From positions 1-45,646 of IMG/VR virus record IMGVR_UViG_3300029750_000003: a stretch of 45,646 nucleotides of DNA; one strand, given 5' to 3'. Shown here one piece after another: positions 3,450 through 37,286 of the stretch (positions are counted from its first letter, which is position 1; the number at the start of each line of letters is the position of its first letter). The notes under the pieces were generated by a model that searched no databases, was not told the DNA's origin, and was given only the letters and a program-made list of their open reading frames with translations. The translations under genes were made by a program, and so were the position numbers. The stretch is from a virus.

Positions 3450-5888
3450 TCACACAATTAGCCGACGGCCAAGCTTGTCCAGAACAACGAGGCCATTTCT
3501 GTCTTTCACGGGGCCAGATACCTTTTTTTTAGGTGCGCCATAGTAAACAATTACACATCCATCCGCTCCGTCTCCGCCAGATCCTCCTTTACCACCATGT
3601 CCACCAGAAGAACCATCCGCGGTTGTGTATTTGGTGTATGTTTCCCAAAGCTGAATACGAGACCCACCGCCGCCGCCGCCACCGCCGCCGCCATTTCCTC
3701 CGTCTCCTCCGCATCCGTATAGCGTAGCTATAGACTTTGAATCGCCTGATGCTCCGTTTCCTCCAGATCCGTAAGAAGATGGATTTTGGTCGTTTATCCC
3801 TCCTTGCCCTCCAGGAGAATTATAAGAAGAGCCACCGCCACCACCGCCGCCGTATCCTTTTTGCCATGCAATTCCATAGTTTGGACTTTTGTTTGTCTTA
3901 TAACGATATCCAGGAACGTCTTTAGGGTTTTCTGTGTAATTATTCCCAACAAGTTCTTCTATACGATACTGTGAACTTCCAGACCCAACAAGTGTACAAA
4001 AATAATTAGGGCTTGTACCTGTTGCCTTTATGGTAGCAGATTTAAAGTCGCTTAGCCTCCACTCTCCAGTTTTTGTGTCAAAAGACGACTTTGTATATCC
4101 AGAAATTGTTTCTCCGATTGTAAATCTTGCGGATGAAGATCCTCCATCAACTTCACGCCAACTGTGCGGTGTAGAGCCTCCACTATAACTTCCGGCTTTG
4201 CCCCCAGCGCCACCAGGTATATCTCCTGAATTTTCTCCACTGTCACCTTTCAATAGTTCATAGGCAGTTGATTCCCCTCCGTTTCCTCCATTGGCTCCAT
4301 CGGCTCCGATGTCTCCTGTTTTTGCATAAGTTTCTTTTGTTATGATGTCTGTGTATCCGGCACCTGTCGAATCTCCATCACCACTTGAATAAACCATCCC
4401 ACCTATCGAAATAGTTGTTTCTGTCCCGATAGATCCTTCTGCCCCATTAGCTATCCCTCCAGTTCCTCCAGCCCCACACTGGAATTGAAGGGTCCTATCA
4501 TCTCCGATTTCAAGATCTACTGTAAGAAATTTGCCCCCTCCTCCTCCGTGCCCCCCATTTCCACCAGATCCACCTTTCCCAAAAACTCCAATGCCAGTTC
4601 CGCCATTCGAAGCACTAGCAGATGCACCATCATCACCAGGTTCTCCGTCCATTCCGGCTTGACCTCCGTTACCAGCTCCGATTACGACAACACGCACATT
4701 TACTGCCTGATCAGGTATTTGCCATGTACCGCTACCGGACAAAACAATTCGATTTTCTAATATCTCAACGTCCTCCGTCTGCGGTGGCTTATATCCAACA
4801 AGCATTTTTGAAGTTGACTTTAATGTATTTGAAATGTTAATATCTTCTATTTCAATGCAGGCCGTAACTGGTTCTTTGTTATATGGGTCCCACGTCAACA
4901 CACGGTTTCCTGTTGATTCCCCTTTATAGACAACTGGTGCTTGGATAGATTGAGCATGCTTATAGTAATTTTTCATTCGGTCTGCGACAGCCGCAGAGTT
5001 TATGAGCGATACCAACGTAGCATTTTCAACCTTCTTTACATTCGGCTCTTTGGCTGAAACAATATCACGTATGATTTGGCTTTTGTTGTGTGTATACTTT
5101 GTTCCAGTAAGCCTTCCGGAACCTGAAGATAGTTTTGCGTAGTTGGCTCCACTCTCTAAAATAGTAAAGCCAGATGCGGATAGATTAAAAACAGGCTCTT
5201 CAAATGTGATAATACTGCCTGCTTCTGTGGCCCCTTCAAAAAGTGTAGATGACTCACCAGATTTTATATATTGGTGTTCTGTAACAATTACTTGGGTTAC
5301 TTTGGCCGCGTTAGTGACGCTCGGGCCATGATACATTCGGTCTAAACCAAGGTTCCCGCTAATTCCATCCCAAAGGGCCGCAATCCGAAGAACTCCATTT
5401 AGATCAGTTCGAATAGTTGCGCCAATTGCAAATAGAACCTGTGACAAGTTATCCCTTGCTGTAGCGATAGGCAACCAACCATACAATTTTATGTCTGCTA
5501 AATTTGTTTTGATCTCGTATGGTATTGTGCCGCATATGGAAGCAAGAAGTTCGGATGCAGTCTCTCCAGAGTAGATTCCTCCATAATGCTGATTTTCAGA
5601 TAAAAGCCCAATTGCGCTTGTTGCAGATATCTTATATGTATTAGGGCCATTCCGGTCAATGGATTTCACATAAAACACACCGGTCTGAACGTCATCATAA
5701 AAATAAACAATTGGAGCGTTTCTTTCAAACTCTGTAATTGTTCTGTCCTCAGTCTCAATTACGACTGATAAGGTATTGGCTTCCAGAGAGGAAGATAGAA
5801 GAGATGTTGCAAGATGAAGATTTCCGCTTTTAATTTTGTTGCCCTCAAAAACTCTGTCGCCATACACAATTTTGTTTTTGTTTGCCAT
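3450..5888 (-). CDS. Tail-associated (Tal/hub position) protein with a C-terminal glycine-rich domain
   Basis: 812 aa, immediately after the Dit-position gene. The N-terminal ~380 aa look like phage minor structural or tail-endopeptidase-type regions. From ~aa 385 (GTWQIPDQAVNVRVVVIGAGNGG) the sequence is glycine-rich to the end (..GADGCVIVYYG..). Confidence 0.75.
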   Translation of the reverse strand: MANKNKIVYGDRVFEGNKIKSGNLHLATSLLSSSLEANTLSVVIETEDRTITEFERNAPIVYFYDDVQTGVFYVKSIDRNGPNTYKISATSAIGLLSENQHYGGIYSGETASELLASICGTIPYEIKTNLADIKLYGWLPIATARDNLSQVLFAIGATIRTDLNGVLRIAALWDGISGNLGLDRMYHGPSVTNAAKVTQVIVTEHQYIKSGESSTLFEGATEAGSIITFEEPVFNLSASGFTILESGANYAKLSSGSGRLTGTKYTHNKSQIIRDIVSAKEPNVKKVENATLVSLINSAAVADRMKNYYKHAQSIQAPVVYKGESTGNRVLTWDPYNKEPVTACIEIEDINISNTLKSTSKMLVGYKPPQTEDVEILENRIVLSGSGTWQIPDQAVNVRVVVIGAGNGGQAGMDGEPGDDGASASASNGGTGIGVFGKGGSGGNGGHGGGGGKFLTVDLEIGDDRTLQFQCGAGGTGGIANGAEGSIGTETTISIGGMVYSSGDGDSTGAGYTDIITKETYAKTGDIGADGANGGNGGESTAYELLKGDSGENSGDIPGGAGGKAGSYSGGSTPHSWREVDGGSSSARFTIGETISGYTKSSFDTKTGEWRLSDFKSATIKATGTSPNYFCTLVGSGSSQYRIEELVGNNYTENPKDVPGYRYKTNKSPNYGIAWQKGYGGGGGGGSSYNSPGGQGGINDQNPSSYGSGGNGASGDSKSIATLYGCGGDGGNGGGGGGGGGGSRIQLWETYTKYTTADGSSGGHGGKGGSGGDGADGCVIVYYGAPKKKVSGPVKDRNGLVVLDKLGRRLIV

Positions 5889-5904
5889 CGCCTATCCTCA
5901 CTTT

Positions 5905-6300
5905 TTACGGCTTGACCTGTGCGTCTATCGGAACAAAGCTTACCTCTATTTCTCCCCAATAATTTACGCTACCTTCTACCTTCTCCATGTCTTGAGATGC
6001 GCTAGTATAATACGCCTCGTAGGAGATGGTTGTCTGTCCGTCCGCAGCCTCCAACATAACGCTATCATCGACTGAGTGTTGGTACAGATAGTCCCAAAAG
6101 GTATCCAGCCCTTCGTAATTGTCTCCTCTGCGAAACACTGTAATCTTATGTCCAAGATAGGTTCCAATAACATCACGTATCATTCGACCGGAAAGCACTC
6201 GGCCAGCATTATCTCCATCTAGTACATTGAAACTTCGATTATAAGTCGAAATTGCAACATCTGCGTCAAACTCAATGCCGTTCAATTTGATATAGCTCAT
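5905..6300 (-). CDS. Tail protein in the distal-tail-protein (Dit) position; short, 131 aa
   Basis: ORF track. Abuts the tape measure stop (6301). Confidence 0.55.
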   Translation of the reverse strand: MSYIKLNGIEFDADVAISTYNRSFNVLDGDNAGRVLSGRMIRDVIGTYLGHKITVFRRGDNYEGLDTFWDYLYQHSVDDSVMLEAADGQTTISYEAYYTSASQDMEKVEGSVNYWGEIEVSFVPIDAQVKP

Positions 6301-8892
6301 TTAACCCTCCACCAAATTTACGCCGATACGCTGAACTTCGCTCTGAGTTGCTTGATAAGATACGCGACCAAGCACCTGCTTGTCGATTTCCAAGATAACT
6401 GTATTGGAGCCGCCGCCACCATATCGCTGCATCCCACGGGCAACAGCGGCTTCAATCTCAGATGTTGGAGCCTCTATATTTGTCCCGCTCTTTTGATCTC
6501 CCAGTACGGTGAGGAACTCTTTATTAGGCGGTATGACCGCGCCTTTTGCAAGGGCAGGAACGTCATCAATTGAAAGCCTTGGTACTGACATTCGGCCTAA
6601 GCCTGATCTGGCTGAATAAGAACTCCCCTTCGTACTGCCACTTCCAAGCTTAAGCGCTGTCCCCCCACCTAAAAGTGCAATCCCGGCCAGTATGAATAGA
6701 GGGTTTAATGTCATTGCACCAATAGCGACTAATGCAATTCCAGCAAGCAGCATTGCTGTAGATACCCATCCAGCCACCTCTTCAAGATGTAATGTTTCTA
6801 CCCAACTACGAAACGTCCCACTTTCATTCCCAACGACAAATCCAGCAATAAGGAGTGCACATCCACCTAAAAACATAAGAACGTTCATAGTCATTAGCCC
6901 GATTGCAACAAGCCCGATTCCTACAAGCAAAATTGCAATCGTTACATACTCCATTACTTTTTCAAGGCCTAATGTTTCAACCCAATCCTGCAAATGATCA
7001 TCATTTATTGCGGCAACAATTCCAAGGCCGAGCACCACTGCACCAGCAATTAGCAAAATAAGATTTCCAGTAGCAGCCGCAATAGCTACCATTACGATGC
7101 CTACCAAAAGGATGGCGACAGATACCCATTGAACAACGGTTGTAAGTTTCAGTTTTTCCCACCATGCCATCAGTGTCTGTTCTCCAATTACTTCTGCTGT
7201 CACCCCTGCTCCTAGAAGAACTGCTCCAGCGATAACCATAAAGATATTCCCCATTGCCGCTCCAATACAGATGAGGGCAAATCCAGCTATTTGCATTGCA
7301 GCTGTTACATAGTCAAACGCGGAATCAAGTCCCAGCGTCTTTGCCCAAGATTCAAAAACTCCACTCTCACTCCCTACAAAGACGCCAGTTGCAATCAAAG
7401 AAATACCAGATATAACCATAAGAATATTCCCTAGTCCTGCGCCAATACAAATAAGGGCAAATCCAGCTATCAATAGAGCGGCAGTTATAAACTGGGCTGC
7501 TCTAGAAAGTCCAAGCGCTTCCGCCCAATCTTGCATCATTCCGCTTTGATATGCATAAGCCACAGCAACTCCGATCAAAGCTAGTCCAGCCACAACAAGT
7601 AAAATATTTACAGTTGAAGCTCCAATAGCAACCATGGCGATGCCGCCGAGTATAATTGCCAATAACACAAACTCTTGCACACTATTTAAACCAAGTGCAT
7701 CAACCCAAGACTGTAATTGTTCATTTTCTCCGGAGAAATCAATGCCAGCTCCAAGTAAAAGTAAACCAGAAAGAACCAGCACTAAACTCCCTATAGATGC
7801 TCCTATAGCTACAAGTGCAATACCACCTAGCATTAATGCAATTGGCACCCAAGCAGATACACTCGCCATCATTTCTTGGAGCCATCCGCTATTCATACCT
7901 TCTTGAAAGGCAGAAAAGTCTGGCCCAATATCTTGATTAGAAGATTCACTTTTATTTCTGCTCCCCGAAAGCTGGTTGATTTCATCAAAAGAAGCGAGCG
8001 ATTTCCCGGCCTCCTCAGCCGCCTCACCCGTTTTTTCAAGTGCTTCTGTTTCCTCATACAGATTTTCAGCGGAGTCCGCAGCTTTCTCTGCTGTTGTACC
8101 AAAAAGCGCAGCAGTAATCCGGGCGGCCATTGAAATTATACGGGCCAACATATCGACAAAATTTGTAAATGCTGGTATAATGACCTCAATCATCGGTTGA
8201 GCGAGCGTCAGGAGAGCCCCTTTTAGGCGTGCAATAGACGCTCTAGCCTCGTCATTTGTTTTGATGACTTTCCCCATCCATTCACGGAACTTCGCAAGAG
8301 CTTGTGTAATGACCGTGAATACAAGCGCGCTTCTGATAACTTCACGCATACGAGAAGAAAACTTGCTTGCGCTCTTTTGCGCTCTATCTACTGATTTTGC
8401 CATTTTGGCGGCGGCAGGGCCGGACTTTGCCATGTTCTGCTGGAGCCCTCCGGCTTCCTCTTTTGCCAGGTTCAACTTTCTTTCTAAGCCAGAAATTTTG
8501 GAATCATAATCTGAAAGCGCTTTTTCAGCCTGCCTCCACTCTTTCTCAATTGCGTCAACCTTTTCTTGTTGCTTTTTCAATTTGGAATCGACCATAGGCC
8601 TGTCAGAATAGGCACGCATATAGTCATCAGCGGACGAACCAGGTTTCATGGCGGCATTGATAGCATTCTGTTCGTCCTGGAGCATGGATAACTGCTTCCT
8701 GGCCTCCTCCAACTCCGCATTTACAACGTTGAGGTTTTCTACTAAAGGAAACCTCCCCTGCTTTTTGGACGTAAGTTGATCTTCGAGCGATTGGATTTTC
8801 TTAGCAAGCTGATTCAGCTCTTTTTGTGCTTTCTTATTGTCAATATTGGTTTCAATGACGATGGAGCCGTCAGCGGCCACATTAAACACCAC
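6301..8892 (-). CDS. Tape measure protein
   Basis: 863 aa, the largest ORF in the tail module. Coiled-coil N-terminus (DGSIVIETNIDNKKAQKEL..), long hydrophobic repeat core, C-terminal PALAKGAVIPPNKEFLTVLGDQ motif. GTG start. Confidence 0.9.
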   Translation of the reverse strand: MVFNVAADGSIVIETNIDNKKAQKELNQLAKKIQSLEDQLTSKKQGRFPLVENLNVVNAELEEARKQLSMLQDEQNAINAAMKPGSSADDYMRAYSDRPMVDSKLKKQQEKVDAIEKEWRQAEKALSDYDSKISGLERKLNLAKEEAGGLQQNMAKSGPAAAKMAKSVDRAQKSASKFSSRMREVIRSALVFTVITQALAKFREWMGKVIKTNDEARASIARLKGALLTLAQPMIEVIIPAFTNFVDMLARIISMAARITAALFGTTAEKAADSAENLYEETEALEKTGEAAEEAGKSLASFDEINQLSGSRNKSESSNQDIGPDFSAFQEGMNSGWLQEMMASVSAWVPIALMLGGIALVAIGASIGSLVLVLSGLLLLGAGIDFSGENEQLQSWVDALGLNSVQEFVLLAIILGGIAMVAIGASTVNILLVVAGLALIGVAVAYAYQSGMMQDWAEALGLSRAAQFITAALLIAGFALICIGAGLGNILMVISGISLIATGVFVGSESGVFESWAKTLGLDSAFDYVTAAMQIAGFALICIGAAMGNIFMVIAGAVLLGAGVTAEVIGEQTLMAWWEKLKLTTVVQWVSVAILLVGIVMVAIAAATGNLILLIAGAVVLGLGIVAAINDDHLQDWVETLGLEKVMEYVTIAILLVGIGLVAIGLMTMNVLMFLGGCALLIAGFVVGNESGTFRSWVETLHLEEVAGWVSTAMLLAGIALVAIGAMTLNPLFILAGIALLGGGTALKLGSGSTKGSSYSARSGLGRMSVPRLSIDDVPALAKGAVIPPNKEFLTVLGDQKSGTNIEAPTSEIEAAVARGMQRYGGGGSNTVILEIDKQVLGRVSYQATQSEVQRIGVNLVEG
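6643..7890 (-). repeat. Seven tandem ~60-aa (about 180-nt) hydrophobic modules inside the tape measure gene
   Basis: Protein-level periodicity: W-x-(E/D/K)-x-L-(G/K/H)-L ... GIALVAIGA ... AG..LLG recurs at W337, W396, W456, W516, W578, W637 and W697. Confidence 0.85.
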
Positions 8893-8912
8893 CTTGAGGG
8901 GAGAGATTTACA

Positions 8913-9749
8913 TTGGAAGGGTACAAAGAAATCATTATTACAAGAGAAAAATCGCCGTGGGGATGTGCTGTCGACTTCACGGTACTTTTGGATGACAAAG
9001 TGGTTGGGATTTTAAGAAACGGCACAACCGTTTCTGCATACGCTCAAGATGGACCCCATACGCTTTCGTTCCAAAAGGGGCGTAAAATCGACTGCTCAAT
9101 TTCAATCCTCGTATCGCCGGATGACACTGCAAAAGTTGTAAACACAGCAATATCTGGATCACACCTCGTAGTTGAGAGTGAATACGCAACAAATACACCA
9201 GAAACCGCTGTTTTCGATAGTGAGAACGCCCCAGAAAAAAGAAGCAGAAAAATTAAGGGAAATGTTGCCTTTGCAGCTGTGATTGTCGTTGCTATTATTG
9301 CCGCTGTATCTCTTACTTTTGGGGGCCGCTCTGATAGTCAGTCAAACGATGGCTATAGTCCAAGCCAATCAACTACTACACCCACGCAGCCATCCGATAA
9401 TTTAGCGCAGAACATCCATCCGGAGGAAATTACCATCTCAGCCAACAGCTTGTGGGCGGCATATAAGGAGAATGCAGTGAATGCCGATGCGCTGTATAAG
9501 GATAAAATCTTGGTTGTGACTGGCACAATTCAAAACATCGGGCAGGATGTTTTAACAAAAGCACCTTGCATTTCGCTCGAAACAAATGACGGTTATGGCC
9601 TTTATCCTATACAGTGCTTCTTCCCGAAGGATGGAGACCAAACGGATTTGATTGCACAGCTAAAGGATGGAGACTACATCACTATCGCTGGTGAGTGCGA
9701 TGGAATCCCTCTTGCTCAAGTTCAGTTGACAAAATGCACGATACGATAA
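8913..9749 (+). CDS. Membrane-anchored protein with OB-fold-like C-terminal domain; antisense moron inside the tail module
   Basis: TTG start ~10 nt after GAGGGGAG. The only plus-strand gene between 809 and 20750. Has a hydrophobic helix VAFAAVIVVAIIAAVSLTF, an S/T/P/Q-rich linker and a beta-rich C-terminus. Visibly AT-richer than its neighbours and has its own terminator. Confidence 0.75.
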   Translation: MEGYKEIIITREKSPWGCAVDFTVLLDDKVVGILRNGTTVSAYAQDGPHTLSFQKGRKIDCSISILVSPDDTAKVVNTAISGSHLVVESEYATNTPETAVFDSENAPEKRSRKIKGNVAFAAVIVVAIIAAVSLTFGGRSDSQSNDGYSPSQSTTTPTQPSDNLAQNIHPEEITISANSLWAAYKENAVNADALYKDKILVVTGTIQNIGQDVLTKAPCISLETNDGYGLYPIQCFFPKDGDQTDLIAQLKDGDYITIAGECDGIPLAQVQLTKCTIR

Positions 9750-9755
9750 TCATAG

Positions 9756-9781
9756 CCGCCCCTCCTGGGGCGGTTTCATTT
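9756..9781 (+). terminator. Rho-independent terminator of the antisense moron
   Basis: CCGCCCC-tcct-GGGGCGG followed by TTTCATTTT. Overlaps the stop codon of the minus-strand gene ending at 9776. Confidence 0.75.
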
Positions 9782-10348
9782 TGCGCCCGTCCAGAGGTTG
9801 ACGAGGTCATTCTCCGCCTCGCTGTATGTCTGCTTGATGTCGATAATGTCACGGTTCTTTCGGTAGAACTCCCTGTCAGACTTGTCCAGCGGCTTGCCCT
9901 TTGCCTTCTTGTCGCGGATGCGGACGATCTGGGCAAAGAGGCAGTCCCCTATTTCCGCATAGGCCGCGAGGATAGTCCACCAGTGGATGCCGCCCGTGTT
10001 GGTTTCGATGTCGTAGTCCACAGCGCGGGCTTCATAGCCCAGCACACGGTTGATAGGGGCAATGATGCGGGGGAAGTCCATAGGCCAGTCCACAAGGTGG
10101 GGGCCTTTCTGCTCCCGTGGCTCCTCGCCGCCGTTGATGAATCGAAAAACCTCTTTCATGGCCGCGTCATAGTCGGTCAGCTCGTCAAAATCCACATAGA
10201 AGACTTGGAGCACGTCAAGGGCCCGGTCTTCCTCGCTGGAATCGGGGTCGTTCATGGCCTCGAAAATGTCGAGGATAACCCGATAATCATAGCGGATAGC
10301 AAACTCCTGCCCGTCTATATCCACGCTTTTTGGAAGTCCATAGCTCAT
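9776..10348 (-). CDS. Gp15-like tail assembly protein (Listeria A118 gp15-type position)
   Basis: 190 aa, between the chaperone-like gene and the tape measure (separated from it only by the inserted moron). Family assignment is from recollection of Phage_Gp15-type proteins. Confidence 0.6.
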   Translation of the reverse strand: MSYGLPKSVDIDGQEFAIRYDYRVILDIFEAMNDPDSSEEDRALDVLQVFYVDFDELTDYDAAMKEVFRFINGGEEPREQKGPHLVDWPMDFPRIIAPINRVLGYEARAVDYDIETNTGGIHWWTILAAYAEIGDCLFAQIVRIRDKKAKGKPLDKSDREFYRKNRDIIDIKQTYSEAENDLVNLWTGAK

Positions 10349-10363
10349 GGCGTGCTCCTTTGG

Positions 10364-10795
10364 TTACTTCTTCTGATACTTCTGGTATTTCGCTGTGTAC
10401 TTGCTGATGCGCGGGTTAGTAAGCTTCTGCTCTCTGGTGAAAGTGGTATCAATCTCATCCATGACCGCCATCATCAAGTTGCACCAGACAGGGAGGCCGT
10501 TGGCAATGGCATAGACATTCATGCCGCCGAAGACAGACTCGCTCACAGGGGCATCGAACACGCCGTCAATAATGCCGCGCATTTCAGCGTCCCGCTCTTT
10601 GGCAAACTCGAAGATTTCCTTCTTGTCCACCATCTTCTCGATCTGGGCCTTGTAGCTCTCCTGCTTCTTGTCCAGATCTTCAAAAGTGGAGTACAGCCGC
10701 TCAACGAAGTTGCTGTCAGTGGGGTTGAACGACACCTCGCACTTGCCATTCAAAGAATATGTAACAAGGCCGGAGTCAAAATTCAGTTCCTTCAT
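10364..10795 (-). CDS. Tail assembly chaperone-like protein
   Basis: 143 aa, acidic, directly downstream of the major tail gene. Confidence 0.6.
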   Translation of the reverse strand: MKELNFDSGLVTYSLNGKCEVSFNPTDSNFVERLYSTFEDLDKKQESYKAQIEKMVDKKEIFEFAKERDAEMRGIIDGVFDAPVSESVFGGMNVYAIANGLPVWCNLMMAVMDEIDTTFTREQKLTNPRISKYTAKYQKYQKK

Positions 10796-15068: not shown

Positions 15069-15941
15069 TTAAAGTCTTTTTTTGCTACTTACCCTGTGAT
15101 TTAGCGCGTCATCATATTGTTGTTCCGTCCATCCATACAGTTCCATGAACGCCTGTTTCCCAATCTCCATCGCCTTGTTGTAGTCTTTGATGCTAAAGCT
15201 TTTTGTGCTGACAAGTTTAATGGATTTTGGGTCAAGAACTGGCTCGCCATCGCTCCCAATCGATACAACATCTCCAGTTACCGCATACATATGCTTGAAC
15301 GAATATTTAGGCGATTCCCAAACCGAAACGCCGTCCTCGGCTTCTCCTGTATCGTGGTTTTTTGATGCTCGCATTGTCCCGCTTTTCAGATATTCTATTT
15401 CAGCATCGTTATCCGTTCCACGGTAAAACAAACCCTCACGCTTTAATCCGGCTAATCTTAATGTCTCGGCCTCGACAATTCCGTGTAGTTTTGTATTCAT
15501 ATAATTGTTGTAGGAATAATCGTTCAGAACAATGCGCCCGTCTGAAAAAATTGTATTTACATTTTCATCGGATACATACTTCCCATCAACAAACCCAGAA
15601 GTATTGGGGGCCTTAAAAACAACTACTCCATCTGTATCGTTTTCAGGGATTTCTATTTTTTTACCAGCTCTATCGCCAGTCAATGTATACTCATTTGTTG
15701 AAGATGCTTGATAGGTGCCGCCTTCATCTTTACCGTAAATCCTTTGCGTTTCTCCATCCTTTAATCGAGTTGCTGTTTTTGCAGGATCGGCACTCTTCTT
15801 CTCACTTCTCTTTGGCTTTCTGTCATCACCAAACTTGCCGCTTTCCTTCATTGCGTCAGTTAAACTTTGACCTTTCTTGATAAAAACGCGCCGCCCACTG
15901 ATTGTCCGCCACACTCCATCTTCTGACGCCATAGATTTCAC
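15069..15941 (-). CDS. MuF-adjacent protein of unknown function (candidate virion-packaged cargo)
   Basis: 290 aa, AT-rich relative to its neighbours. N-terminal GVWRTISGRRVFIKKGQ motif is recalled from modules linked to MuF/gp7 head proteins. Has its own terminator. Confidence 0.75.
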   Translation of the reverse strand: MKSMASEDGVWRTISGRRVFIKKGQSLTDAMKESGKFGDDRKPKRSEKKSADPAKTATRLKDGETQRIYGKDEGGTYQASSTNEYTLTGDRAGKKIEIPENDTDGVVVFKAPNTSGFVDGKYVSDENVNTIFSDGRIVLNDYSYNNYMNTKLHGIVEAETLRLAGLKREGLFYRGTDNDAEIEYLKSGTMRASKNHDTGEAEDGVSVWESPKYSFKHMYAVTGDVVSIGSDGEPVLDPKSIKLVSTKSFSIKDYNKAMEIGKQAFMELYGWTEQQYDDALNHRVSSKKRL

Positions 15942-20750: not shown

Positions 20751-21098
20751 ATGAAAAAGTACAATCTCTCTGAAATCATGAAAGCCGCTTGGAACCTGCG
20801 CAAGATGTCCCTCAAGTGGGTCACCTCTCTCAGCTTCGGTGAGTGCCTGCGCCGCGCCTGGAAGGCCGCGAAGGACGCCGCCCGTGTGTTCTCCGGCCTC
20901 GTGTGCAATGTCCAGGTCGGCGGAACCCTGGCGCACCCCGTCCTGGTGGATATCGACATGGACGCCCTGACCGTCACTGGCAATACCTACCCCGTGCGTA
21001 GCATGATGCGCGAGTTCGGTCTGGTTTGGGATCGTGACAACAAGGCTTGGACTGGCAGCCGCGAAACTCTCAATCCCATCTGCGTCAAGTACGCTTAA
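20751..21098 (+). CDS. Hypothetical protein (115 aa), first gene of the plus-strand cassette
   Basis: ATG 8 nt after AGGAGGT. Helical N-terminus (NLSEIMKAAWNLRK...FGECLRRAWKAAK). C-terminal GNTYPVRSMMREFGLVWDRDNKAW motif. Confidence 0.75.
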   Translation: MKKYNLSEIMKAAWNLRKMSLKWVTSLSFGECLRRAWKAAKDAARVFSGLVCNVQVGGTLAHPVLVDIDMDALTVTGNTYPVRSMMREFGLVWDRDNKAWTGSRETLNPICVKYA

Positions 21099-21121
21099 TT
21101 ACGATTGGTAAGGAGACAACT

Positions 21122-21574
21122 ATGGAAAAGTATTACATCATTGCAGACTTAAAGCGTAACCCAGCCGCCGGGGAGGATGTTCCCCCCGTCCCTGGTGCCC
21201 AGGTATATGAGGGGAGAATGAAAGCCATCATCGAGGCTGAGAACTGGGAAACAGCCATGAAGCAAGGCCAGGAGCTGATCATGGGCTGCCTGAAAAAGCA
21301 CATCGTCCCGTACCAGTGGGTCTGGATGCCCGTCAAGGACGCCGAGAAGATGGGGGACACCGCCATATATGAGAGGTACCCCACCGCAACCAGGCTGACC
21401 TATGAGCGAGTCAAAGCCGGTCTGACGCAGAAGCAGTTGGCCGAGCGCTCTGGTGTCAATATCCGTCAAATCCAGCGTGTCGAGCTTGGAGAGTCCGAGG
21501 CCGGAAACCTCACCGCCAAGAATCTGCTAGCAATCGCTGACGCGCTTGGCGTGGAGTTGAGGAGACTTCTCTGA
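21122..21574 (+). CDS. XRE-family HTH protein with ~85-aa N-terminal domain of unknown function
   Basis: ATG after AAGGAG. C-terminal LTQKQLAERSGVNIRQIQRVELGESEAGNLTAKNLLAIADALGV is a classic XRE helix-turn-helix. Confidence 0.8.
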   Translation: MEKYYIIADLKRNPAAGEDVPPVPGAQVYEGRMKAIIEAENWETAMKQGQELIMGCLKKHIVPYQWVWMPVKDAEKMGDTAIYERYPTATRLTYERVKAGLTQKQLAERSGVNIRQIQRVELGESEAGNLTAKNLLAIADALGVELRRLL

Positions 21575-21984
21575 TGGCTGTTGTTGTAAAGCCCCGTACC
21601 TGCCGCCAGTGCGGCGCTGTCTTTGATGGCGGCCCCCGCGCATGGTATTGCCCGGCCTGCCGCCTGGTGCGGAGTAGAGAAGCAGACGCGAGGCGGAGAA
21701 AAAAGGGGCGAAAGGCTGACCGCCCTCTCGGTAGTATCGATAAATGCACCGTCTGCGGGAAAGAGTATGTGGTAAACTCTGGCCGGCAAAAGTATTGTCC
21801 CGACTGCGCCTATGAGGCCGTCCGCAAGGTGGATCGTCCAGCCTCACGGGCTTGGAACCAGGCCAACAAGGAAACTTACTATCCAGCCAGGAATGAAAAG
21901 CGCCGAAAAGAACGCGCGGAGAATCCAGAGCTGGTTCGGGCAAAAGAACGAGCTGCCTATGCCAAACGAAAATCTAAAACATAA
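21574..21984 (+). CDS. Basic protein with two zinc-ribbon motifs
   Basis: CRQC..17..CPAC and CTVC..14..CPDC. Lys/Arg-rich C-terminus. ATGA overlap with the preceding gene. Confidence 0.7.
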   Translation: MAVVVKPRTCRQCGAVFDGGPRAWYCPACRLVRSREADARRRKKGRKADRPLGSIDKCTVCGKEYVVNSGRQKYCPDCAYEAVRKVDRPASRAWNQANKETYYPARNEKRRKERAENPELVRAKERAAYAKRKSKT

Positions 21985-21992
21985 CCATCCTT

Positions 21993-22020
21993 CCGCCCCT
22001 TCGGGGGCGGCTTTATTTTT
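21993..22020 (+). terminator. Rho-independent terminator of the plus-strand cassette
   Basis: CCGCCCC-ttcg-GGGGCGG followed by CTTTATTTTT. Confidence 0.85.
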
Positions 22021-22342
22021 GAGCGGGTGAGGATTTGCACCTCACATGAGTGGATTGCTGTCTAACGCCCGTCGCGCATTACTGCGGCCTGCAAACCCGA
22101 GGGACGATACCCATACCGCGAGCAGGATAATAGGTGCCACTCTACCCGTCACCATAGCGTCTACCTTATTCCGCCACCGCTCAATGTTTTCAGACCGACC
22201 AACATCTTTTCACCAGCCACCGCCAGCCCTTCACCCTGAATGGGGTGGTTTTCAGCCGTGCGGCATATTGCACACAGAGGGGGTGGCGGCAGATGCACCG
22301 ACGCCACCCCATCCGTGTGAAGGAGGAAGGGGAATGAAAGAG

Positions 22343-22380
22343 AATGGGAGCGCAGGGGCACACGCTCCCACACTCCCATT
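22343..22380. terminator. GC hairpin, probably a bidirectional terminator closing the early operon
   Basis: GGGAGCG (22346-22352) pairs with CGCTCCC (22363-22369). An alternative outer pairing is AATGGGAG/CTCCCATT. T-rich sequence follows on both strands. Confidence 0.55.
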
Positions 22381-22457
22381 TTCGCATAGTTATTGTTTTG
22401 TGCTCACTACATGTTGTAAAAACAGAATATTTTTAACAATATAATGAAAGGTTAGCC

Positions 22458-34567: not shown

Positions 34568-34939
34568 GTGAAAACCATAGCTGAGCGAATTATGGAAGTG
34601 GTTGAAGAAAAGGGCGGAAACAAAAGTGATTTTGCCCGTAAAATTAACGTTACTCCAGCATACATTTCCAAATTAGGAAAAGATCCAAACTGCATTCCTA
34701 GCGATCGCACCATTGCCGACATCTGCCGTGAATTTAACATCTCCGAGCTCTGGCTGCGTACCGGAGAAGGAGAGCCCCATATCCAGAGGGACGAGGACGA
34801 GGAGTTCCTCGAAGTCACGGAGCAGATCCACATGTCTGATGATGATCTGATTAAGCGGATTATTAAGGCATATTGGTTTATGGAGGACGACGAAAAAGCC
34901 GCCATCAGAAAACTGATAGACGGCTTTACAAAAAAATAA
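34568..34939 (+). CDS. CI-like repressor (XRE HTH, no S24 peptidase domain)
   Basis: GTG 7 nt after AGGAGGT. KSDFARKINVTPAYISKLGK HTH. Divergent from the early operon. 123 aa. Confidence 0.75.
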   Translation: MKTIAERIMEVVEEKGGNKSDFARKINVTPAYISKLGKDPNCIPSDRTIADICREFNISELWLRTGEGEPHIQRDEDEEFLEVTEQIHMSDDDLIKRIIKAYWFMEDDEKAAIRKLIDGFTKK

Positions 34940-35426: not shown

Positions 35427-35825
35427 ATGGAAAATGAAGCTATCAACGGGACTAACCCAGAAGTCGGCCAGACCACTCCACCCGAATCGCCCAAAAAGTT
35501 TTGTAAATATTGTGGCGAGCGCATCGACATTGACTGTGTTGTTTGCCCTAAGTGCGGAAAACAAATCGAGGCGCTCAGGCAAGACCCGTCTCAGGTAATT
35601 ATCAATAACAATGGAAGCGATTACCCCTATAAAAGTAAAACCGTCGCTCTGCTCTTGTCTATTTTCGTTGGCGGTCTTGGGATACACCGTTTTTATGTCG
35701 GGAAACTCGGAACCGGAATTATCTGGTTGTTGACTGCTGGTTGTCTTGGAGTCGGCTGGATTATCGACATCATTATGATCGCCGTAGGCAGTTTCCGGGA
35801 CAAGGCGGGCATGCCGTTGCAGTAA
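35427..35825 (+). CDS. Zinc-ribbon plus TM2-domain membrane protein
   Basis: CKYCGERIDIDCVVCPKCG, then KTVALLLSIFVGGLGIHRFYVGKLGTGIIWLLTAG...GWIIDII, the typical TM2 pattern. Confidence 0.7.
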   Translation: MENEAINGTNPEVGQTTPPESPKKFCKYCGERIDIDCVVCPKCGKQIEALRQDPSQVIINNNGSDYPYKSKTVALLLSIFVGGLGIHRFYVGKLGTGIIWLLTAGCLGVGWIIDIIMIAVGSFRDKAGMPLQ

Positions 35826-35845: not shown

Positions 35846-36148
35846 ATGCTGGATGAAAAAGATTTGCAGGCAATCGCACAGTTGATGGAGAAGCAGAAAC
35901 AAGACATCATGTCTGAAACGAAGGGCTTGTTGGAACAGCAGAAACAGGACATCATGCACGATGTAAAGGTTTTATTGGACACGGAGGTCACAACCCGATT
36001 TAACCTTTTGGCCGAGGGACAGCAGGTCATTATGGACGCCATCACGCCAAAAAGTGAAATCGAGGAACTGCGAAACGAAGTATCCGTGCTTAAGCTGGCG
36101 ATCCGCACCATGAATCAGGAAATCGCCGAACTGAAAAAAGCGCAATAA
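35846..36148 (+). CDS. Coiled-coil protein (100 aa) with an internal repeat
   Basis: ATG at residue 36 of the track ORF. (E/L)KQKQDIM(S/H) is duplicated. Confidence 0.55.
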   Translation: MLDEKDLQAIAQLMEKQKQDIMSETKGLLEQQKQDIMHDVKVLLDTEVTTRFNLLAEGQQVIMDAITPKSEIEELRNEVSVLKLAIRTMNQEIAELKKAQ

Positions 36149-36254: not shown

Positions 36255-37286
36255 ATGAGAAGAGCGAATGGAACTGGAAGTATTGTAAATCTTGGGCCAA
36301 ACCGCAGAAACCGATACGCCGTCAGGGTGTCGTATTTGGAGCGGCCCGGACTGTGGAAGCAAAAGTATCTATCCTACCACAGAACTGCCAAAGAAGCACA
36401 GGAGGCCCTTGACAAATATTTGGCATCTAATATCCCGGCAAAGTCACTCGCCGTTACCTGGGGAGACGTATACAATCAGTGGTCTGCCAAAAAGTATGCA
36501 AAGGCAGGAACTGCCTCTATCGCCAGCTATAAGGCTTCTTGGGCGCGCCTCTGTGTGCTAGAAAAAAAGGATATGTGCAAGGTTACGATTGACGACCTAC
36601 AATCTATTATTGACCAAGACGAGGCAAACGGATTATCGAAATCTAGTATTAGCAATGACAAAATGCTTATGAAAGCACTTTTTAAGCACGCAACAGAGCG
36701 CGATATCGTGTATAAAGACTATTCCGCTTTTGTGGAACTTCCAGGAGTTGAAGCAAAGCACGAAAAGGGTGCTTTTGATGATATCACAATGCGTAAATTG
36801 GAGAACCTGGCGTCCTCTGGATTCCCTTGGGCTGATACCGTACTAATGCTATGTTATACTGGATTCCGGGTGTCCGAGTTTTTGGGGCTTACCAGATTCT
36901 CGTATCATTCGGAGGCGAATTATTTGCAAGGAGGTCTAAAAACCCAGGCCGGGAAAAATCGCATTGTCCCGGTGCATCCTAAAATCATGCCATATCTGAC
37001 CAAGTGGCTGTCCAGGGGCGGTAAAACTATTATCTGTGATGATGACGGGAATGCAATCCCCGCATACAAATACCGCCCGCTATTCTCTAAAGTTATGGAA
37101 GAATTAGGACTTCCTTCCGCAACCCCTCATTGGTGCAGACATACCGCCGCGTCTCGGATGAGGATGGCCGGGGTGGACGAAGTCGCTATAAAGCGTATCT
37201 TAGGGCATTCCGATGGAGATGTTACCGAGCACTATACGCACGTAGATGTTTCGTTTTTGGCTAAAGAGATCCAGAAGGTTTCCTAA
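36255..37286 (+). CDS. int: Tyrosine integrase
   Basis: 343 aa. Catalytic-type motifs GFRVSE (Arg), HWCRHTAAS (H-x-x-R) and LGHSDGDVTEHYTH (His..Tyr). Confidence 0.9.
   Translation: MRRANGTGSIVNLGPNRRNRYAVRVSYLERPGLWKQKYLSYHRTAKEAQEALDKYLASNIPAKSLAVTWGDVYNQWSAKKYAKAGTASIASYKASWARLCVLEKKDMCKVTIDDLQSIIDQDEANGLSKSSISNDKMLMKALFKHATERDIVYKDYSAFVELPGVEAKHEKGAFDDITMRKLENLASSGFPWADTVLMLCYTGFRVSEFLGLTRFSYHSEANYLQGGLKTQAGKNRIVPVHPKIMPYLTKWLSRGGKTIICDDDGNAIPAYKYRPLFSKVMEELGLPSATPHWCRHTAASRMRMAGVDEVAIKRILGHSDGDVTEHYTHVDVSFLAKEIQKVS

Follow-up and report, generated by a model that had tools for sequence, protein, structure and literature searches.

Membrane proteins that exclude other phages are already known to be encoded by prophage morons—a term that we use in the sense of Juhala et al. 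2000, as summarised in PMC3594210—and one such moron is known even at the junction where the gene for a tail chaperone meets that of the tape measure protein (TMP). As the work of Cumby et al. 2012 is summarised in PMC3594210, the product of this gene, gp15 of phage HK97, blocks the entry of phage genomes, its specificity depending on the tail region of the incoming phage. In this report we focused on ORF278, a plus-strand open reading frame (ORF) of 278 residues that lies between the TMP gene and a Gp15-like gene in IMG/VR virus record IMGVR_UViG_3300029750_000003, the 45,646 nucleotides (nt) of which were analysed as a whole (the window). Our main conclusion, to which we give a probability of about one half, is that ORF278 is a moron-type accessory gene of a prophage, residing in a slot between chaperone and TMP genes, and that it would encode a surface protein excluding superinfecting phages. 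Superinfection exclusion, or a block to entry, appears to be the best-supported function because of the architecture of the protein, its match to a PHROG labelled Sie-like, its structural neighbours with Ltp and DUF4352 names, the HK97 gp15 precedent, and the turnover of exchangeable ectodomain cassettes on one membrane anchor.

The comparison with HK97 gp15 highlights important similarities and differences. Like ORF278, gp15 is a membrane protein encoded between the tail chaperone (G/GT) and TMP genes, with its own terminator directly after the gene. The chaperone role of the Gp15-like gene in the window is assumed from its place before the TMP gene. ORF278 likewise represents extra DNA at this junction and is followed by a terminator of its own, as expected of a moron. 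However, gp15 has only 62 residues, is co-oriented with the late genes, and is YebO-like, whereas ORF278 is antisense to the late genes, multi-domain, endowed with an exchangeable ectodomain, and found in a phage of a Gram-positive–type host. What is new in this locus is the opposite orientation, a protein family unrelated to gp15, the modularity of the cassettes, a slot that recurs across divergent lineages with varied anchors, and a promoter-like element embedded in the TMP gene.

A second parallel is with the Ltp-type lipoproteins, described for Streptococcus thermophilus phage TP-J34 (PMC3952083), and the lactococcal Sie2009-type proteins, which block DNA injection and in which an ectodomain is carried on a flexible tether. 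Like ORF278, these proteins are prophage-encoded and surface-anchored in Gram-positive hosts, and a gut-phage protein bearing the Ltp Pfam name is among the structural neighbours of ORF278. Their genes differ in belonging to the lysogeny module, in the interval between integrase and repressor, and Ltp, a lipoprotein, is built of helical repeat domains, whereas ORF278 lies in the tail operon, has neither an N-terminal signal nor a lipobox (its N terminus is a folded domain), and gives no match to the Ltp Pfam family. A third parallel is with anchored OB (oligonucleotide/oligosaccharide-binding) fold proteins of family PF12869, of which the ectodomain of ORF278 is a bona fide member together with structure 3f1z and TcdC of Clostridioides difficile. 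We know of no established function for this family. The OB domain of TcdC matches the PF12869 profile by HHpred (PMC3575817), and TcdC is a membrane-anchored protein whose OB fold was experimentally found to be extracellular (bioRxiv 10.1101/872283). TcdC shares with ORF278 the anchor-then-OB layout but lacks the N-terminal β-sandwich, and a comparison of ORF278 with Lrm1 gp25, a TcdC-type phage protein, by hhalign reached a probability of 31%, too low to demonstrate direct homology. Finally, Mpr of Mycobacterium smegmatis, a membrane-anchored protein with a DUF4352 module that has been proposed to be phage-derived, confers phage resistance (PMC12596739). Mpr differs from ORF278 in having a nuclease at its N terminus, and ORF278 carries an OB domain rather than DUF4352, but DUF4352/DUF5067-like ectodomains, with matches below the Pfam cutoff, are found in one allele class of the same gene, and clear DUF4352 domains are present in more distant genes at the same junction.

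The window reads as a temperate phage, with a tyrosine integrase (36255-37286, plus strand) and a putative helix-turn-helix (HTH) repressor that was read by eye from the translation (34568-34939, plus strand). ORF278 shares their strand; the genes for portal, terminase, capsid, and tail lie on the other, minus strand. A human-gut Clostridia bacterium of the Oscillospiraceae type is the probable host, the only match in a genome scan being a prophage of Oscillibacter valericigenes at 52% identity. Relatives were compared, among the matches listed, at 86 loci from viral contigs and assemblies and at 80 metagenome loci, the metagenomes containing at least 600 Gp15-like matches. No cultured, annotated phage was found to carry ORF278, the matches being one unannotated human faecal contig (97.8%) and, weakly, Burkholderia phage Carl1 (34%). 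The gene, its flanks, and its signals are as follows.

8913 to 9749, plus strand: ORF278, encoding a bitopic membrane protein, stop codon included (ORF list, Pfam, PHROG, AlphaFold2, and substitution rates)
6301 to 8880 (8892 as listed), minus strand: TMP gene, one flank (PHROG tape measure families)
9776 to 10348, minus strand: Gp15-like gene, the other flank (Pfam PF06854 Phage_Gp15, 56.7 bits against a cutoff of 23)
8896 to 8905, plus strand: ribosome-binding site (RBS) GAGGGGAGAG, purine-rich, 7 nt ahead of the TTG start
9754 to 9785, plus strand: intrinsic terminator, a hairpin (9754-9775) followed by a T-tract, overlapping the convergent Gp15-like gene at its stop codon

The initial annotation of this DNA had portrayed ORF278 as standing alone on the plus strand within some 20 kb of late operon, with its own TTG start, RBS, and terminator, and this portrait is confirmed. 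Between 823 and 20602, the TTG-initiated ORF278 is the sole credible plus-strand gene in the ORF list, the other plus-strand ORFs being shadows of longer minus-strand genes. The position of its start is conserved in relatives, which use TTG, GTG, or ATG there, and the RBS is kept in all lineages as GAGGGGAGAG, AGGAGGGA, or GAAGGGGAAG. On the other side of the spacer, the mechanical ORF of the TMP gene begins with GTG at 8892, but 8880 is probably the true start because relatives carry at the equivalent position an ATG preceded by the RBS AAGGTGG; the spacer between the two genes would therefore be 32 bp and hold both RBSs. The terminator, a 9-bp GC-rich hairpin followed by TTTCATTTTG, starts 4 nt past the stop codon (−18.8 kcal/mol). 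It stands directly behind the stop codon in all alleles of the gene (A, B, C, and B+C, described below), and at locus L002 it shows a compensatory change in the stem, from GCCGCCCC/GGGGCGGT to GCTGCCCC/GGGGCAGT. It is U-rich on the plus strand only, and the minus-strand transcript of the hairpin has no U-tract, so that late transcription is expected to read through. No Rfam family was matched in 8000-10500.

ORF278 is predicted to consist of two folded domains on either side of the membrane, separated by a single transmembrane helix and a stalk, in agreement with what had initially been noticed from the sequence alone, namely a small N-terminal β-domain, one transmembrane helix, a linker rich in S/T/P/Q, and an OB-like ectodomain. 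The parts of the protein are given below, with their support from an AlphaFold2 (AF2) model built on a 24-sequence alignment, from its predicted local distance difference test (pLDDT) values, and from the ratio of nonsynonymous to synonymous substitution rates (dN/dS).

8913 to 9197, plus strand: N-terminal β-sandwich, residues 1-95, predicted to be cytoplasmic (AF2, dN/dS)
9264 to 9320, plus strand: single transmembrane helix, residues 118-136, VAFAAVIVVAIIAAVSLTF (mean Kyte-Doolittle hydropathy 2.8)
9333 to 9428, plus strand: stalk rich in S/T/P/Q/N, residues 141-172 (66% S/T/P/Q/N over 32 residues; pLDDT <50)
9429 to 9746, plus strand: OB-fold ectodomain, predicted to be extracytoplasmic, residues 173-278, PF12869 (Pfam, AF2, Foldseek)

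The Pfam match to PF12869 (tRNA_anti-like) spans residues 123-272 and is well above threshold (72.9 bits against a gathering cutoff of 23.5, E 2.6e-20). Structure prediction followed by Foldseek, which had been proposed as a check, gives an all-β, eight-stranded N-domain (residues 1-95, pLDDT 85-92, about 88), a disordered middle, and an OB domain (residues 172-278, pLDDT ~80) whose top match in the PDB is 3f1z, a putative nucleic acid–binding PF12869 lipoprotein (E 1e-4, TM-score 0.71 normalised to the target); no sequence homologue of solved structure was found for ORF278. In BFVD, the structural neighbours come from gut siphoviruses and bear the names tRNA_anti-like, DUF4352, and "Host cell surface-exposed lipoprotein"; the last of these is the Ltp family name. 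Within the OB domain, three cysteines are invariant (C219, C235, and C262), and a fourth, C275, is nearly so. The predicted topology is N-in/C-out because five K/R occur in the 15 residues before the sole hydrophobic segment of the protein (residues 118-136) and only one after it. Three further considerations support this topology. First, relatives P0042, P0045, and P0046 have a zinc ribbon between the N-domain and the transmembrane helix. Second, a cytoplasmic location of the N-domain is supported by its fusion to a soluble Mrr_cat nuclease in P0068. Third, the membrane-anchored OB fold of TcdC is extracellular in C. difficile.

One pointer to the function of this protein is that its ectodomain varies while the anchor is shared. 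Four classes of alleles, all sharing the N-domain and the transmembrane helix, are found among the 86 loci: allele A, with the OB fold seen in ORF278 (57/86); allele B, with a DUF4352/DUF5067-like ectodomain (23/86); allele C, with a domain characterised by "GTYxVGxDIPAGTYDC" (4/86); and a combined B+C form (2/86), for which the AF2 model of P0024 was unusable (mean pLDDT 41). DNA homology between alleles begins at the start codon, breaks off at nt ~424-440, shortly behind the transmembrane helix, and resumes after the stop codon, at the terminator. Behind the A allele of L084 lies a 176-nt remnant of a B 3′ end, and synonymous divergence (dS) in the OB domain is only 0.13-0.18 between lineages in which that of the N-domain is saturated. 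Taken together, these homology boundaries, the B remnant, and the low dS of the OB domain show that the segment coding for the ectodomain is swapped as a cassette between the transmembrane-coding segment and the terminator. There is no obvious covariation between the type of ectodomain and the downstream tail genes, gene lengths of 217 and 290 residues occurring with A, B+C, and C alike. Exchange of ectodomains among near-identical phages is what would be expected of a surface protein engaged in a phage-phage arms race. In the mechanism that we favour, ORF278 would be transcribed in the lysogen, apart from the late operon, from a sigma-A–like element at 8153-8181 within the TMP gene, with a leader complementary to the 5′ third of the TMP messenger RNA. 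The stalk would hold the ectodomain at the cell surface, where it could block superinfecting siphophages at adsorption or DNA entry, either by binding the incoming tail tip or TMP or by masking a needed component of the membrane or cell wall. Exchanging the ectodomain would then change the set of excluded phages.

This architecture, encoded in a transcription unit of its own, would also fit a lysogenic-conversion protein unrelated to exclusion, such as a ligand-binding module that aids the host in the gut through adhesion, binding of glycans or extracellular DNA, or envelope homeostasis. PF12869, DUF4352, and DUF5067 are generic extracytoplasmic binding folds, and the extracellular OB fold of TcdC has been proposed to bind oligosaccharide or extracellular DNA (bioRxiv 10.1101/872283). 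However, we regard this explanation as unlikely. In many lineages the slot goes with the tail module, and the composition of ORF278 matches that of the TMP and distal-tail block. Moreover, the interchange of unrelated ectodomains on one anchor is a better fit to the switching of specificity against phage targets, and ORF278 matches PHROG 8545, a family labelled as Sie-like.

That ORF278 is a real gene under strong purifying selection is clear from dN/dS values of 0.02-0.15 across both folded domains, as compared with 0.4-0.8 in the stalk; taken separately, the N-domain has a dN/dS of ~0.03 with saturated dS, and the OB domain 0.02-0.14. A chance ORF is ruled out by these values together with conservation in >150 loci. 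The N-domain belongs to a rare family, with only 27 cluster representatives in a set of 1.84 billion reaching E<=1e-3, and has weak similarities to DUF2846 and phrog_890. The same rare β-sandwich also heads P0068, a soluble protein of 404 residues with a C-terminal Mrr_cat restriction-endonuclease domain, a fusion that hints at a role of the N-domain in defence-type proteins. The rarity of the N-domain, the strong constraint on it, and this fusion are the reasons to consider that ORF278 might act from inside, as a membrane-anchored defence protein in which the cytoplasmic β-sandwich is a sensor or effector recruiter at the injection site, as described for Mpr or SNIPE, and the ectodomain serves only for positioning. 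Membrane nucleases engaging TMPs do exist (PMC13190303), as does the DUF4352-containing Mpr (PMC12596739). Nevertheless, the chance of this being so seems small: the N-domain has no match to any catalytic family, it is replaced by a zinc ribbon, two transmembrane helices, or a lipid anchor in other cargo of the same junction, and the part that diversifies is the ectodomain.

The junction itself behaves as a place for cargo over a wide range of relatives. When the Gp15-like protein is at least 84% identical to that of the window, all 120 of the scorable loci listed (86 plus 34 from metagenomes) carry an antisense gene abutting the TMP start. In contrast, the junction is empty in 15 of the distant relatives listed (Gp15-like protein 51-70% identical), with a gap between the Gp15-like and TMP genes of −18 to +31 bp, so that presence and absence at this exact junction, which it had been suggested to check, show ORF278 to split a pair that is otherwise contiguous, as initially claimed. 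Where the junction is not empty, it holds 0.2-3.4 kb of cargo. At 51-73% identity, 13 of the metagenome loci listed have antisense genes of various designs (zinc ribbon–transmembrane–DUF4352-like or –Ig-like, zinc ribbon–transmembrane–OB, two transmembrane helices followed by a B-type ectodomain, or PH/Gly-zipper), and three more have a minimal zinc ribbon–transmembrane ORF with its own terminator. In the prophage of O. valericigenes Sjm18-20, with a Gp15-like protein 52% identical, the same place holds an antisense lipoprotein gene with a lipobox (LSAC), as in Ltp, but with a different, C-type ectodomain. The cargo thus appears always to include an antisense gene for a predicted membrane protein or lipoprotein. 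In L090/L091, in which the junction is empty, the homologue P0046 is found antisense two genes downstream, at a different site of the tail operon; there it occupies a genuine intergenic stretch, has a terminator of its own, and is provided with strong promoter-like sites.

The slot also accommodates other genes. Antirepressor-like genes of the Rha (PF09669) and Bro-N/KilAC (PF02498/PF03374) types occur in it in late-strand orientation (loci of the L037-L068 type, with 2.3-2.4 kb of junction cargo, and L143 and L093), and in L081 and L132 a 92-residue antisense coiled-coil gene (phrog_33872) lies beside the membrane-protein gene. The IMG/VR contig L029 has two Gp15-like copies ~4.2 kb apart, the first followed by a truncated 156-residue copy of the membrane-protein gene, which may be an assembly artefact or a duplication.

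These findings qualify the view of ORF278 as an inserted moron. It is accessory, antisense, and followed by its own terminator, and the junction is empty elsewhere, all of which is as the initial annotation had it; however, the gene is not sporadic but fixed in the close lineage, and the junction is less the site of a one-off insertion than a lasting slot for cargo. Similarly, the claim that ORF278 is AT-richer than its neighbours holds against the Gp15-like gene (44.8% as compared with 55.5% GC) but not against the TMP gene (45.9%); the next tail gene (Dit) has 43.9% GC, and the large tail protein gene 44.6%. ORF278 is therefore compositionally part of the distal-tail block and not an island, and the idea of an AT-rich island or a sporadic recent insertion is ruled out by its fixation in the lineage and its TMP-block composition. 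There is a sharp compositional joint at 9750-9780, that is, at the 3′ end of ORF278: the distal-tail block (3450-9749) has 44-46% GC and a GC content at third codon positions (GC3) of 0.32-0.43, as compared with 50-56% GC and a GC3 of ~0.72 for the Gp15-like gene and the adjoining gene of 143 residues and a GC3 of 0.70 for the capsid gene, while the major tail gene further on falls back to 46% GC and a GC3 of 0.44. This joint suggests a mosaic recombination boundary.

Fixation in the lineage, coinheritance with the TMP and distal-tail block, and a position embedded in the late region would suit a gene that works in the lytic cycle, being expressed after induction or infection rather than in the lysogen, and whose product masks receptors, like Llp of T5, or modulates the timing of tail genes. 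We give this possibility little credence since the promoter-like element is of the sigma-A type and ORF278 shares its strand with the repressor and integrase genes; furthermore, lying antisense to late transcription would be expected to lower its expression when the late genes are on.

The candidate promoter of ORF278 lies within the TMP gene.

8153 to 8181, plus strand: sigma-A–type promoter-like element, TCGACA-17 nt-TGgTATAAT (extended −10), antisense within the TMP coding sequence, ~730 nt before ORF278
8182 to 8895, plus strand: putative 5′ leader of the antisense transcript, placed from the positions of the promoter-like element and ORF278

This element matches 11 of the 12 hexamer positions, has the additional TG, and is the best site of the region. 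Nine lineage representatives, with TMP N termini only 67-75% identical, have both hexamers unchanged, while the spacer and the flanking synonymous positions vary. Among degenerate codons for invariant amino acids, 7 of 8 are codon-invariant within the element versus 26 of 191 (14%) over the first 450 TMP codons, and such clustering was reached in only 5 of 20,000 shuffles (p about 2.5e-4); the conservation of the element extends to synonymous sites. In the prophage of O. valericigenes, where cargo is present, it is kept as TTGACA-17-TGGAATAAT, and the version in L091, with its empty junction, is degenerate. In a wider set, most cargo carriers keep TGGTATAAT and most noncarriers do not, a correlation limited by phylogenetic nonindependence. 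No other plus-strand site scoring at least 9/12 occurs between 8182 and the start of ORF278. A promoter match at 8907-8935 was discarded because it overlaps the start codon, so that its −10 hexamer ends downstream of that codon. We infer that the element at 8153-8181 acts as the promoter of ORF278, in which case the transcript would be ~1.6 kb long (~8188 to ~9780), with a 725-nt leader antisense to the TMP RBS and the first ~230 codons.

Such a leader raises the question of whether the locus is mainly cis-regulatory, with an antisense RNA over the TMP translation start that silences leaky tail genes in the lysogen or interferes with them, and with the ORF being secondary. The conservation of the element at synonymous sites within the TMP gene and a putative leader spanning the TMP RBS and ~230 codons speak for this explanation, which is nonetheless very improbable. 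Strong purifying selection acts on the two protein domains and there is turnover of ectodomain cassettes, and therefore the protein itself is selected; in addition, retention of the element correlates with the presence of the downstream antisense gene. Cis-regulation can thus be an additional rather than the sole function. Lastly, that ORF278 encodes a virion or tail-assembly component, as its position between two tail-assembly genes might suggest, is scarcely credible given the opposite strand, the terminator of its own, the transmembrane helix and stalk, the nonhomologous ectodomains and varied anchors, and the absence of the gene in 15 relatives in which the same tail genes are contiguous.

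Several observations weigh against exclusion as the function of ORF278. First, ORF278 matches PHROG 8545 (phrog_8545) with E 2.6e-12 over profile positions 19-161 of 177, which speaks for exclusion, but the family label, "superinfection exclusion Sie-like," is not traceable to any experiment; the TcdC-like genes between int and cI of Lactobacillus phages were considered as a source of the label and not confirmed, Lrm1 gp25 belonging to another PHROG. In PADLOC-DB 2.0 there was no convincing match, the best being a marginal one to PD-T4-6 over a low-complexity region (E 0.015), and BLASTP of ORF278 against HK97 gp15/YebO gave no alignment at E<=100. Second, functions that benefit the host could just as well be performed by OB, Ig-like, and other binding modules, and the fixation of ORF278 in its lineage together with its tail-module composition would fit a function for the phage's own tail or in the lytic cycle. 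Third, no sigma-70–like site is found directly upstream of ORF278, the candidate being 730 nt away with weak terminator-like hairpins in between, and the association between element and cargo has exceptions in both directions: cargo carriers L137, L155/156, and L143 lack the motif, and L162, with an empty junction, has a near-consensus version.

A broader proposal, which we put forward tentatively and hold to be rather unlikely, is that siphophages of gut Clostridia keep a dedicated "exclusion slot" in which anchors and ectodomains are combined. The anchors would be the β-sandwich, the zinc ribbon, two transmembrane helices, or a lipid, and the ectodomains the OB, DUF4352-like, "GTYxVGxDIPAGxY," or PH/Gly-zipper domains; cassettes would recombine between the transmembrane-coding segment and the shared terminator, thereby retargeting exclusion, while a promoter would be kept in synonymous sites of the TMP gene and the leader would silence the phage's own TMP and tail genes in the lysogen. 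If exclusion is indeed the function, the locus would be a counterpart of the HK97 gp15 moron in the Gram-positive gut microbiome, with a modular and exchangeable specificity domain, in a slot that persists over lineages in which the Gp15-like protein has diverged to ~50% identity and with a promoter embedded in a structural gene. Such genes would shape the coinfection of abundant gut Clostridia by phages and would offer natural handles on the interactions of tail tips and TMPs at the Gram-positive membrane. Should this function fail, the locus would still document a recombination hotspot and a rare, uncharacterised, cytoplasmic β-sandwich domain.

Other genes of the window deserve mention. Temperate phages of Gram-positive type classically have their Sie genes in the interval between repressor and integrase, and in the window this interval contains a gene (35427-35825, plus strand) for a protein of 132 residues in which a zinc ribbon (DZR, E 1e-3) is combined with a TM2 domain (PF05154, E 8e-20), which because of this position is a second candidate exclusion or conversion gene. 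Beside the integrase gene, 35846-36148 (plus strand) encodes a 100-residue coiled-coil protein that is 33% identical (E 6e-14) to the 92-residue slot gene phrog_33872 mentioned above. In the TMP, residues ~340-760 comprise ~8 tandem hydrophobic units of ~55 residues that resemble transmembrane hairpins, with the pattern "...W..ALGL..V.E.V..A.LL.GIALVAIGA...N.L.V.AG..LLG.G...". The minus-strand gene at 3450-5888 encodes an 812-residue tail protein that has no Pfam match and whose C-terminal half contains long glycine-rich tracts of the GGxGG type. The SPP1 gp7-like minor capsid protein (PF06152; 16114-17283) has relatives in L002, L006, L007, and L008 that are fused to polymorphic-toxin C termini (PF18451 CdiA_C and PF15542 Ntox50); in the window it has 389 residues without a toxin domain and is followed by a separate ORF of 290 residues (15069-15941) without a Pfam match. 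Finally, a second plus-strand cluster (20751-22444) lies in the interval between the early genes and the terminase, and includes genes for an HTH_3 protein at 21047-21574 and, at 21574-21984, for one with a zinc ribbon.

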